From Bdellovibrionales bacterium RIFOXYD12_FULL_39_22 (GTDB taxonomy: Bacteria > Bdellovibrionota > Bacteriovoracia > Bacteriovoracales > Bacteriovoracaceae): DNA of 64,000 nt. Under the pieces are notes generated by a model. It searched no databases, was not told the origin of the DNA, and was given only the letters and a program-made list of their open reading frames with translations. The translations under genes were made by a program, and so were the position numbers. The stretch spans positions 1-64,000 of the forward strand of contig MEQL01000041.1 in NCBI GenBank assembly GCA_001770205.1. The letters are read 5' to 3'. The number at the start of each line of letters is the position of its first letter. The first letter of the stretch is position 1. Shown here piece after piece: positions 22,470 to 24,956 of this stretch.

Positions 22470-24956
22470 ATGGAAGGAATAGTTATGAAGATTTATCAAT
22501 TGCATGATGAAATTATAATTTCACGACGACAGATATATTTCATAAAAATAATAATCTATTTCCTGATATGTATGTTGGGTTGTGGGCAGGCATTAGGGAG
22601 TACGGCCTCTTGCTTGTCAAAAACGATTGCAAATATTTCATACTCAAGACAAACAATCGCGGATAAATTAAATGAGATTCCAGAGTTAAAAGAGATGGTT
22701 TTAACAATAATGGAATCTCCCGACATTCCTCAATCTATTAAACGAGTAATAAAAGATTCTCTAGAGAGGCGTTCAGTCCCTGTTCGAGTACTAGACGCAA
22801 CGGCCAGAGCAAAGATGGGGATGCCTGATTACATTAAATATAGCTATATTAACAATCGCCAAAAAATTGGACAATATTATGTGACATCAACCGAAGAGGG
22901 AATAACAGCGCCACTAAAAGAGATAATCTCGGTCTTAAATGGCCCATTGAGTAATGATGGAAGTGAACTTATCAAGCTTGTTCATGAACTTGCCCATGCT
23001 CGTTTTGATGCATTCTTTAATAAAAACATCGCAAAATTTGCAAAAAGGTTTCCTCCTCCATTGATTAAGCAGTTGCCAGACGGCCGTTATCTTTATCATG
23101 AGGATTTATATTCTTATCTCACTGAGCGATACGCTTTTGAGAAAAGTTATCAGTTGCAACGTTCGGCCTATCCTCAGTATTTTTCAAAGTGGAGTGAAGA
23201 AATTGGGCCAGGGCCAACAGAGACACCAGAAAATATTAGAAAATATTTAAATGATGCCATTGTTGATGTTTATAAGATACGTTTTCAACCATTGCTCGAT
23301 CTGTTGGCCAAAAATCCAAGTCGCTCTTTAAAAGACCTTTTATCTTCTTTCAATTTGTATGCAGAAAATCCGTTAGAGGAGGTCGGCCAAAAGTTCTTTG
23401 TAGAGAGACCACATGAAGCAGGTAATGTGCCGGACCAACTTGATTCGTTGTCAAAAGTTGTTGGTGGAAATGAAGAAACTTTGCATATTTCCCAACAGGT
23501 GATGATGCCAATGAAGAATAACAAACTTTCACAGATCCCTCTTGAGGGAGGAGATATGTTGTATATTACGACAAAATTTGAACGTGATAATGTGGTTCAC
23601 TCAGGGGCCGGAATTGTTGATGGTTTTATTCTTAATAACGATGGTAAGGTGACAGGGATTAGATTTGCTCCAGTCACAGAATTTGAACCGAGAAAGCGCA
23701 TAGAAAATCTACCATCGAGAATTATTCAGATAGAAGATATAAATTTTGATAAGTCTTATATATCAGAAAAAAAATTCGATCTATCGAATCAACGGCCACT
23801 TGCTTTACAAGATAATTTACCGATTCCTGACAATAGCGGCAAATATATGTTTTCTGTTAGTCGCTCTTCATTTCAGGCCCCAGTCTCTGTTGGAGATAAT
23901 ATTGATGTGAAGTTATTAAAACCAATGGAGATTCAGATGACTAAGTATACATCAGAGTCAAAAACAAATCTCATTGGAAAAGTTACGTCAATATTGAAGG
24001 ACAAAAACGGTGAGCCGATCGGAATTATAATAGCTGGTGATGATTTTCATATGCCAAAAGATAGGGAGTATCCGATTTTATTTGAGAATATATCAAGAAA
24101 AGATTATGGAGCAATGATTCGACTTGATGAGCGTGGTTTGGCCGTGCCTGGCTCGAACGTTCGTCGGCCTTACAATGGTTCAGTGGCCTGGTTTGCAGAT
24201 TCCCCTTCTCGTGATTTTATTTTTCATGAGACCAGTGGTTCGTGGACTGTACAGGTGAAATCGGTAGGAGGGCCAGATTTGCAAGCTCCGGTAACGTTAG
24301 GTGATGAGATCCGTATTGCCTTTAAGTACACTGATGGTAAATACGAAAAGGCTGCTAGATCTATTGTATTAATTAAAGACTGGGTAAAAAACAATAAAGG
24401 GGAAATTATTGGATTTGATGTTGAGCATTTAGTTAATCATTCTTATGGCCCAAATAATTCAAACGTAATTCCCGATCGTATATTATTTTCTCAGCTTTCA
24501 AGAGATGATTCTTTTATTTATGGTTCTGGTGGAAATATATCTGAACGCGCCAATAAAATACCAGGCGCCATGCGAGACGCTACTCCATACCGAGCTGCGG
24601 GGGATAGTATTAATGAATCGTGGCGGGATCGGATGAATGAGTGGGCAAAGAAAGGTAGAGCGAATCAGGGAGGAGGCGATATTGTTAGGCCAGTTTCGGA
24701 GTATTCTCCCTGGACAAACTTTCCTGCCAACTACGAAGATTGGGCGCATCAAAATGGGGTCATGATAGGAGATAATTCGTCAGTTGTTTGGGCGCAATGG
24801 GTTCTTGGTGTAAATCAGGAAACATCTGCAAAAGAAGTCAAGGTGGCATACAGAAAATTGGCCAAGCGTTTTCATCCAGATGGTAAAGGGAAAGTGCCCA
24901 GGAAAAAGGAAGAGAGTGAAGCAATGACGGTGATAAATCGTGCATATGAAATTTAA
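22470..24956 (+). CDS. Secreted multidomain protein: HExxH putative zinc protease, three beta-rich repeats, C-terminal J-domain
   Basis: Hydrophobic leader; LVHELAH with downstream TERYA; VLGV..ASAKEVK-like..AYRKLAKRFHPD..INRAYE at the C-terminus. Confidence 0.8.
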   Translation: MEGIVMKIYQLHDEIIISRRQIYFIKIIIYFLICMLGCGQALGSTASCLSKTIANISYSRQTIADKLNEIPELKEMVLTIMESPDIPQSIKRVIKDSLERRSVPVRVLDATARAKMGMPDYIKYSYINNRQKIGQYYVTSTEEGITAPLKEIISVLNGPLSNDGSELIKLVHELAHARFDAFFNKNIAKFAKRFPPPLIKQLPDGRYLYHEDLYSYLTERYAFEKSYQLQRSAYPQYFSKWSEEIGPGPTETPENIRKYLNDAIVDVYKIRFQPLLDLLAKNPSRSLKDLLSSFNLYAENPLEEVGQKFFVERPHEAGNVPDQLDSLSKVVGGNEETLHISQQVMMPMKNNKLSQIPLEGGDMLYITTKFERDNVVHSGAGIVDGFILNNDGKVTGIRFAPVTEFEPRKRIENLPSRIIQIEDINFDKSYISEKKFDLSNQRPLALQDNLPIPDNSGKYMFSVSRSSFQAPVSVGDNIDVKLLKPMEIQMTKYTSESKTNLIGKVTSILKDKNGEPIGIIIAGDDFHMPKDREYPILFENISRKDYGAMIRLDERGLAVPGSNVRRPYNGSVAWFADSPSRDFIFHETSGSWTVQVKSVGGPDLQAPVTLGDEIRIAFKYTDGKYEKAARSIVLIKDWVKNNKGEIIGFDVEHLVNHSYGPNNSNVIPDRILFSQLSRDDSFIYGSGGNISERANKIPGAMRDATPYRAAGDSINESWRDRMNEWAKKGRANQGGGDIVRPVSEYSPWTNFPANYEDWAHQNGVMIGDNSSVVWAQWVLGVNQETSAKEVKVAYRKLAKRFHPDGKGKVPRKKEESEAMTVINRAYEI

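Follow-up and report, generated by a model that had tools for sequence, protein, structure and literature searches.

Here we describe a gene in a 64,000-nucleotide stretch of DNA from Bdellovibrionales bacterium RIFOXYD12_FULL_39_22 (contig MEQL01000041.1, positions 1 to 64,000 of the forward strand; the whole stretch is hereafter called the window). Its product, referred to as the J-protein, is a modular protein that consists of a hydrophobic leader, a cysteine, a zincin-like head with an HExxH...E motif, three barrels and a three-helix J-domain with the HPD tripeptide. The domain architecture of the J-protein, its family membership, the conservation of its motifs and the recurrence of leaders in its relatives are firm. 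The positions that a first-pass annotation of the window had given for the open reading frame (ORF), the HELAH motif, three similar units and the HPD all proved correct (Table 1). Of four readings of the protein, we rank first the one in which the protein is a secreted effector whose J-domain works inside a foreign cytoplasm, a serious possibility that nevertheless stays below an even chance.

The DnaJ family (PF00226) is the only Pfam domain recognised in the 828-residue protein, residues 778-828 aligning to model positions 5-52 of 63 at 42 bits (cut-off 27.8), and NCBIfam and PDB sequence searches with the whole protein returned J-domain matches and nothing else. The PDB matches reached E 4.5e-5 with the single sequence and 6e-12 with the family profile, and the AlphaFold2 (AF2) model places the J-domain helices at 429-440, 448-462 and 473-488 (C-terminal numbering) with high confidence. 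With this Pfam score and the HPD at 24873-24881, the terminal J-domain with an intact HPD seen by the first-pass annotation is confirmed. Thus by score and HPD the product is a J-domain protein, yet not by the full four-helix fold. Helix IV is missing throughout the family that shares the repeats and the J-domain (the repeat+J family, 18 sequences including the query, with 22-29% identity), in which the tails after the HPD-position tripeptide measure 22-36 residues, and no continuation of the J-domain or helix IV was found downstream of the stop codon in any frame. The helix II consensus of the family is canonical, 'RKLxxKFHPD', helix I reads WAxWVL, and W758, W774 and W777 are invariant, a Trp-rich extension replacing the usual surroundings of helix I. 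Since the HPD is conserved on a canonical helix II, the tail probably still addresses an Hsp70, and the presence of the HPD in 15 of the 18 sequences despite such low overall identity points to selection on the Hsp70 contact. A complex model of the J-domain (A4 residues 405-489) with residues 1-605 of E. coli DnaK and ATP scored 0.31 against a mark of 0.32 and is evidence neither way. The PHROGs search gave matches in the J region only. A eukaryote-like character of the J-domain was considered, as the top 10 PDB hits to the family profile are eukaryotic (35.4-48.5 bits; E. coli DnaJ 32.9), but the idea was dropped, since bacterial DnaJ proteins reach 44-47 bits against that profile and the comparison does not discriminate.

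When 1.84 billion cluster representatives were searched exhaustively with HMMER (E<=1e-3), 128 hits were obtained, namely the query itself, 99 matching the head only (query residues ~16-292), 17 matching the repeats and J-domain and 11 matching the J-domain only. No other hit carries both the head and the repeat+J part, hence this combination is so far unique. Elsewhere the head domain occurs alone or fused to other regions, and in the 18-sequence alignment at least four unrelated kinds of N-terminal heads are mounted on the repeat+J chassis. The repeats with the J-tail constitute a rare family, whose 17 representatives differ in having heads that are not related. In addition to the three units, its members have in common the motifs DSGxF...QAPxSVGD, DDSYIE, ANxIPGA and PWTxxP...W, and their J-domain stands at the extreme C-terminus throughout; Pfam detects DnaJ in 17 of the 18 sequences (E<=0.01) and no other family in any of them. 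The head, the barrels and the chassis belong to no Pfam, NCBIfam or PHROGs family. Furthermore, the family is detectable only by exhaustive HMMER: the word-indexed search with the whole protein recovered nothing beyond the protein itself, and that with the C-terminal profile recovered the protein, one other (P0092) and 6 ordinary DnaJ proteins. A search of genome contigs with the J-protein gave 53 pattern matches, none of which was confirmed, so that this collection holds neither the source genome nor close kin of it. An ESM Atlas query with the alternative head of one repeat+J relative (P0011) returned nothing. Within the window the J-protein has no paralogue, the family hidden Markov models (alignments A1 and A4) matching only the 22470..24956 ORF among 368 six-frame ORFs.

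A degenerate DNA pattern, W-A-x-W-V-L...[FY]HPD, pointed to 7 loci, which tblastn separated into 2 true relatives and 5 chance matches. One relative (P0043, locus L002) is a repeat+J protein in a metagenome-assembled genome of the Pseudobdellovibrionaceae, which we take to be a lineage of bacterial predators, and the other (locus L003) is a repeat+J protein in an assembly labelled Elusimicrobiota. The latter (7638-10180) is split over two overlapping ORFs in different frames (7638-8756 and 8753-10180), which reflects either a frameshift or an assembly error, and an ORF upstream of it (3836-5689) contains barrel-like motifs of the 'VGDxV' type. The TerC proteins of the window and of L002 share a mere 29% identity, which is uninformative as to taxonomy.

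The J-protein contains a single hydrophobic segment, at residues ~22-43, which confirms the leader noticed in the first-pass annotation; one transmembrane-like segment was found overall, and the best 12 Kyte-Doolittle windows (19 residues) all lie at residues 15-31. The leader comprises a basic n-region (K7, R19, R20, K26), the hydrophobic core IIIYFLICMLGCGQALG and the small-residue sites ALG/S and STA/S, where the slash marks the putative cleavage position. All three signal-peptide features (basic n-region, h-region and small residues at -3/-1) are thus present, with an n-region that, counted from M6, is unusually long (21 residues with 4 K/R and 2 D/E, followed by a core of 17 residues). 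Under the positive-inside rule, a charge bias of the kind seen here leads to an N-in/C-out orientation: 4 K/R precede the hydrophobic stretch and 1 K/R lies in the 15 residues after it, so that the bulk of the J-protein is predicted to be exported. In addition, a hydrophobic N-terminal leader is present in 62 of 78 head-domain relatives and a signal-like leader in 10 of 17 repeat+J relatives, the remaining 7 being fragments or sequences without a clear N-terminus. These leaders are short with AxA-like ends, for example ...ASAAFA/VPC and ...AVAAFA/KLE. Hence the oddity of an export leader on a J-domain protein, seen in the first-pass annotation, recurs among relatives, and its occurrence in both parent families argues that the J-protein leaves the cytoplasm. 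Export is accordingly supported at the family level from the sequences of the relatives.

The reading frame offers three starts, ATG at codon 1, ATG at codon 6 and TTG at codon 49 (22614). M6 has a better Shine-Dalgarno sequence (GGAAGGA, ending 7 nucleotides upstream) than its rivals, the TTG being preceded by GGGAG 13 nucleotides upstream, and the ESM Atlas record of the protein begins at M6. The long form with the leader is favoured because Cys48 aligns with the Cys column of the head family and because the leaders of the relatives lie directly upstream of that Cys. A scan for promoters and terminators at the locus gave nothing above shuffled sequences.

The type of leader was compared with lipoprotein and Tat signals. 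A lipoprotein reading via MLG/C38 is disfavoured, since Cys at position -4 breaks the PROSITE lipobox rule and the conserved Cys of the family is C48; the residues ahead of that column in the relatives are too diverse for a lipobox. The Tat consensus is Z-R-R-x-hydrophobic-hydrophobic followed by K, and the leader contains SRRQIYFIK (22536-22562), to be compared with NRRDFIK, two residues shorter, in the molybdopterin oxidoreductase of the window (32473-34671). An RRxhh motif occurs in 3 of 78 leaders of the head family and in 1 of 17 of the repeat+J family, the strict Tat pattern in none. A Cys shortly after the leader, often as C-x-x-x-hydrophobic, is found in 9 of 10 leader-bearing repeat+J relatives despite their unrelated heads. 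A similar post-leader Cys occurs in exported proteins of unassigned function in the window (735-1550(-), 6217-7044(-), 7276-8040(-), 25065-25997(+) and 26260-27663(+)). This residue may direct sorting, act as a cysteine switch or be the place of an acylation.

The head carries HELAH, the putative metal-binding and catalytic motif, in model helix 126-146, and a candidate third metal ligand, E219 in ERYAFE, in model helix 172-194. The downstream Glu mentioned in the first-pass annotation is best assigned to this residue. In the 79-row alignment of the head family (78 of the 99 hits and the query, 18-35% identity to the query, after 20 hits of more than 400 amino acids and one fragment of 114 were dropped), H172 is conserved in 79/79, E173, H176 and E219 in 78/79 each and A222 in 75/79 sequences; the HExxH was also kept in all six of the dropped long proteins that were inspected. 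The AF2 model of residues 40-300, built from the same alignment, is confident (predicted local distance difference test, pLDDT, 91.6; predicted template modelling score, pTM, 0.89) and shows, in order, three short helices, a small sheet, the long HExxH helix, two strands, the long helix with E219 and a helical C-terminal part. This predicted order of secondary structure fits a gluzincin or zincin, and the placing of E219 on the helix after the HExxH helix follows from the order of elements in the model.

Database comparisons of the head gave no significant match of the J-protein to Pfam or NCBIfam families and no peptidase in the PDB profile search. Zmp1, lethal factor and PepO reached template modelling (TM) scores of only 0.23-0.26 in the Foldseek search of the PDB. 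Several weak leads were recorded: minimal zincin families match weakly at the local motif 'HELAH[VIA]R'; the sub-threshold Pfam hits among the 79 family members (E<=10) are eCIS_core in 7, Peptidase_M91 in 2 and MPTase-PolyVal in 1, the best value being E 0.009 for eCIS_core in one member; the weak matches in BFVD include a 'zincin protease', a peptidase of a phage and proteins resembling SprT and IrrE; and the ESM Atlas leads are Peptidase_M3 and ImmA/IrrE models with TM 0.39 and 0.35. By features, the ESM Atlas neighbours of the head are phage clusters without names (0.91-0.92) with low shared-feature counts, which serve as a lead only. The weak fold and sequence leads all go toward zincins. 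The first-pass annotation had called this part an HExxH protease and had proposed a check of the zincin fold by AlphaFold and Foldseek; the near-invariant motif and Glu, the confident model and its zincin-like order bear this out in part, while a significant match to a peptidase, in sequence or in fold, was not obtained. On the strength of the model, the head is zincin-like, with membership of the zincins unproven, and probably represents a new type of zinc protease.

The three similar units seen in the first-pass annotation, which begin at residues 355, 469 and 605, are related by family profiles, whereas within the single protein only the second and third are clearly above chance. Pairwise comparison within the J-protein gave z 8.0 for repeats 2 and 3 (a score reached by 0/300 shuffles), a marginal z 3.3 for repeats 1 and 3 (2/300) and a non-significant z 0.9 for repeats 1 and 2 (59/300). 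With family profiles, hhalign gave 94.0% for repeats 1 and 2, 97.3% for 1 and 3 and 99.1% for 2 and 3 (E 1.4e-18), and by these profiles the three repeats are judged homologous. In the AF2 model of the C-terminal half (18-row alignment, pLDDT 77.4) three beta-barrel modules are followed by helices, and for this half Foldseek gives tandem Tudor-like SAWADEE/Agenet domains the best probabilities, 0.66-0.77 (E 8.6e-3 or worse). The repeats therefore model as SH3/Tudor-like barrels, a resemblance of fold class only. In the linker between barrels and J-domain, S681, P698 and W758 (S342, P359 and W419 in C-terminal numbering) are invariant in the 18 sequences.

Table 1. Features of the J-protein gene, with positions in the window and the observations on which each assignment rests.
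Feature	Position	Strand	Basis
Whole ORF	22470..24956	+	828 amino acids from first ATG; ORF list and translation
Likely start ATG (M6)	22485	+	GGAAGGA Shine-Dalgarno sequence ends 7 nucleotides upstream
Export leader (M6-G43)	22485..22598	+	Hydropathy, flank charges, leaders of relatives in same place; cleavage presumed
Cys48	22611..22613	+	Sole Cys outside leader core; column holds Cys in 57/79 sequences, 15 gaps
Head domain (residues ~50-300)	22617..23369	+	HExxH...E family; 99/128 HMMER hits cover it
HELAH (H172/E173/H176)	22983..22997	+	Putative metal-binding/catalytic motif in model helix 126-146
E219 in ERYAFE	23124..23126	+	Candidate third metal ligand, 43 residues past H176; model helix 172-194
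Repeat 1 (residues 357-439)	23538..23786	+	Predicted beta-barrel module; hhalign, AF2 strands
Repeat 2 (residues 451-557)	23820..24140	+	Predicted beta-barrel module after 'DSGxF...QAPxSVGD' motif; hhalign, pairwise z
Repeat 3 (residues 585-689)	24222..24536	+	Predicted beta-barrel module, most conserved of the three in the family
Conserved linker (residues ~681-767)	24510..24770	+	DDSxI (DDSYIE), ANxIPGA and PWTxxP...W motifs
J-domain variant (residues 768-828)	24771..24953	+	Three helices without helix IV; Pfam, AF2 and PDB matches
HPD (residues 802-804)	24873..24881	+	Kept in 15/18 repeat+J family sequences

Subsequently, the J-protein was compared with known systems. According to its published description, HopI1 of Pseudomonas syringae starts with an N-terminal region, continues with central repeats and ends in a J-domain, which binds the Hsp70 of the host and stimulates the ATPase of that chaperone (PMC4617103). 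The order of parts is the same in the J-protein, a comparison made with the published description in which homology is claimed for the J-domain superfamily only. In contrast to the J-protein, HopI1 lacks a Sec-type leader and is secreted by the type III route, it has disordered, P/Q-rich repeats of 27-38 amino acids rather than folded barrels of ~85-105 residues, and its N-terminal region is without HExxH. HopI1 is the nearest known analogue. DjlA has a short periplasmic N-terminus and one transmembrane helix, after which come a TerB-like middle domain and a J-domain on the cytoplasmic side (PMC11709261). It thus resembles the J-protein in its single N-terminal hydrophobic segment and C-terminal J-domain, and is the sixth-ranked NCBIfam hit (NF006948), but the flank charges of the J-protein predict the opposite orientation, the middle domains are unrelated with no TerB match in Pfam, and identity with DjlA was rejected at 24.7 bits against a cut-off of 162. 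With DnaJ and CbpA (classes A and B) the J-protein shares J-domain helices I-III and the HPD; its J-domain is, however, C-terminal instead of N-terminal and is without helix IV. Identity with class A DnaJ was rejected too (TIGR02349, 33.8 bits against 377.2, J region only; the G/F region, the CxxCxGxG zinc-finger and the substrate-binding domains at the C-terminus are absent). By curated cut-offs the J-protein is not DnaJ, CbpA or DjlA.

For the head, the closest likeness is to minimal zincins, among them eCIS_core (presumably the former DUF4157 zincin domain), Peptidase_M91/NleD, MPTase-PolyVal and SprT/IrrE-like phage proteins, in which a small beta-sheet precedes the long helix that carries the HExxH, and the Glu lies on the next long helix. 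Nevertheless, no member of the head family reaches a curated cut-off of these families, Foldseek gives TM <=0.45 and E 9e-3 or worse, and the head family has a conserved ERYAxE helix and an N-terminal Cys of its own. The three consecutive five-strand SH3-like barrels of the model recall tandem Tudor, Agenet and SAWADEE domains; these matches are, however, non-significant (E 8.6e-3 or worse, target-normalised TM ~0.3) and the proteins concerned are eukaryotic chromatin readers.

J-domains universally serve to switch Hsp70 'on' and, outside eukaryotic organelles, are expected only where Hsp70 and ATP occur, which is not the case in the Gram-negative periplasm. The window encodes OEP, MlaD/E, FadL-like and TatC proteins (tatC at 58091-58804) and is therefore Gram-negative. 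Under the reading that we rank first, the J-protein would be exported with cleavage of its leader and would then reach a foreign cytoplasm, that of a prey bacterium or a eukaryotic host, where the J-domain would dock on ATP-bound Hsp70/DnaK and trigger its ATPase. The head, here a probable metal-binding peptidase and in relatives other enzymes, would thereby be tied to Hsp70 or its clients, which we infer to be the target, and the barrels would be binding or spacer modules. This delivery to another cell is placed first because of the interchangeable heads, the precedent of HopI1, the relative in a predator lineage and the exported eukaryote-like or toxin-like proteins of the window, which holds exported proteins with leucine-rich-repeat, RCC1 and ADP-ribosyltransferase domains. 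Domain shuffling on a common chassis is typical of effector or toxin families. A broader proposal, which we put forward more tentatively and consider doubtful, is that the repeat+J chassis represents a new class of Sec-exported modular effectors, possibly of predatory or host-associated Bdellovibrionota-like bacteria, with interchangeable heads and a minimal J-domain commandeering foreign Hsp70/DnaK; here a zincin-like protease would be brought to the chaperone or its clients, and the post-signal Cys would be a lineage-specific sorting or activation signal. Several observations weigh against action in a foreign cell. A Pfam scan of the other 46 ORFs of >=150 amino acids in the window showed no type III, IV or VI secretion genes, and J-domain effectors that are known, HopI1 for example, travel by type III secretion without a Sec-type leader. 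The leader itself is ambiguous among Sec, lipoprotein-like (MLG/C38) and Tat-like (SRRQIYFIK) types, and one stored gene call begins at TTG 22614 (780 amino acids) and so omits it. In the J-domain helix IV is missing, the protein ending 24 residues past the HPD, and the tripeptide is lost in 3 of the 18 family sequences (HPE, HAD, SAN). Foldseek of the head model gave 0 hits at E<=0.001 both against the PDB (best YopH, E 0.11, TM 0.17) and against BFVD (best E 9e-3). Moreover, the relative in locus L002 (1-4746) lies ~85-140 nucleotides past htpG (Hsp90) on the same strand; this single adjacency may be due to chance or hint at a link to the chaperone network of the producer.

Such a link would suit a self-chaperoning export substrate, whose J-domain recruits the producer's own DnaK before or during export and keeps the ~90 kDa multidomain precursor unfolded and competent for export, the mature product being an ordinary periplasmic or secreted protease with binding repeats, in which the J-domain would no longer play a part. 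In E. coli, DnaK and DnaJ can help certain Sec substrates to be exported, and this explanation, which we regard as rather unlikely, would account for both the leader and the conservation of the HPD without a foreign cell, for the position of the J-domain in the part translocated last, for the htpG neighbour and for the absence of injection machinery among the scanned ORFs. Literature searches turned up no earlier case of a secretory protein of bacteria whose J-domain acts in cis, however; the domain, once it had folded and acted, would need to unfold again to pass through Sec, and many leader-bearing stand-alone relatives of the head are exported without any J-domain. Similarly improbable in our view is an extracytoplasmic protease whose J-like tail has no Hsp70 role and is a structural or protein-binding module, with barrels that bind envelope polymers or the prey surface. 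The family-wide lack of helix IV with its short tails, the family-specific Trp-rich extension, the three lost HPD tripeptides and the exported products of neighbouring genes speak for such a tail, but if Hsp70 plays no part, it is difficult to account for an HPD that the other 15 sequences retain on a canonical helix II, and the family profile matches bona fide J-domains (E 6e-12). The weakest of the four readings, and a quite unlikely one, keeps the J-domain inside the cytoplasm, either through a DjlA-like anchor or in a soluble protein starting at TTG49, as a co-chaperone handing DnaK clients to the protease head. The stored gene call with its GGGAG agrees with it, as does a hydrophobic stretch readable as 21 residues (I22-L42), enough for a helix, and DjlA shows that membrane-tethered C-terminal J-domains exist (PMC11709261). 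Yet ~21 residues with 4 K/R precede the segment and 1 K/R follows it, as expected for N-in/C-out, the NCBIfam DjlA model stays far below its cut-off and matches the J region only, a start at TTG49 would drop both Cys48 and the leader, which are conserved in relatives, and the leaders of relatives are short with AxA-like ends. The first-pass annotation had named an anchor with a cytoplasmic J-domain as the outcome that would refute it; this is disfavoured by the charges, by the lack of a second transmembrane segment and by the export of the head in relatives.

Several genes in the window are of interest in their own right. At 25065-25997(+), 108 nucleotides downstream of the J-protein gene and on the same strand, lies a gene for a leucine-rich-repeat protein with a signal peptide, which may be co-expressed with the J-protein gene, and the next gene (26260-27663(+)) encodes an exported GLUG-motif protein. 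The divergent upstream neighbour (20676-22172(-)) encodes 498 amino acids with a lipoprotein-like leader ending in Cys (...TTSAC) and a borderline match, 27.0 bits and equal to the cut-off, to the permuted papain-like amidase family C92. The gene at 18504-20543(-) encodes a DEAD-box helicase to which a long Q/P/N-rich linker of low complexity and, at the C-terminus, an R3H domain are fused, an uncommon architecture, and a Schlafen AlbA_2 / HATPase_c_4 / winged helix-turn-helix protein with a fourfold 'TSQK' repeat is encoded at 27770-29215(+). Farther away, the exported 271-residue protein of 735-1550(-) has a signal-like leader and an ADP-ribosyltransferase match (PF03496, E 8e-8; PF01129, E 9e-8) and by sequence looks toxin-like. 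The protein of 45397-51414(+), 2005 amino acids long, ends in an RCC1-like beta-propeller (PF25390, E 1.7e-102), a eukaryote-like domain that to our knowledge is unusual in free-living bacteria, and no Pfam family matches its large neighbours at 39287-43726 (1479 amino acids) and 43758-45149. The window was scanned for RNA genes with Rfam and for tRNAs, and none were found.

Literature searches on exported or effector bacterial J-domain proteins, judged mostly from abstracts, turned up no paper on a Sec-exported bacterial J-domain family. A conserved family of bacterial proteins in which an export leader occurs together with a J-domain whose HPD is intact raises the testable question of where the J-domain meets Hsp70. 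If this happens in the producer's cytoplasm, the family would carry a built-in co-chaperone for secretion. If it happens in a foreign cytoplasm, chaperone hijacking would extend beyond HopI1, the one known bacterial case, to Sec-exported modular proteins, possibly of predators. Either way, the J-protein brings to light two unannotated domain families, the HExxH...E head with 99 cluster representatives and the triple beta-barrel module, together with a naturally minimal three-helix J-domain.

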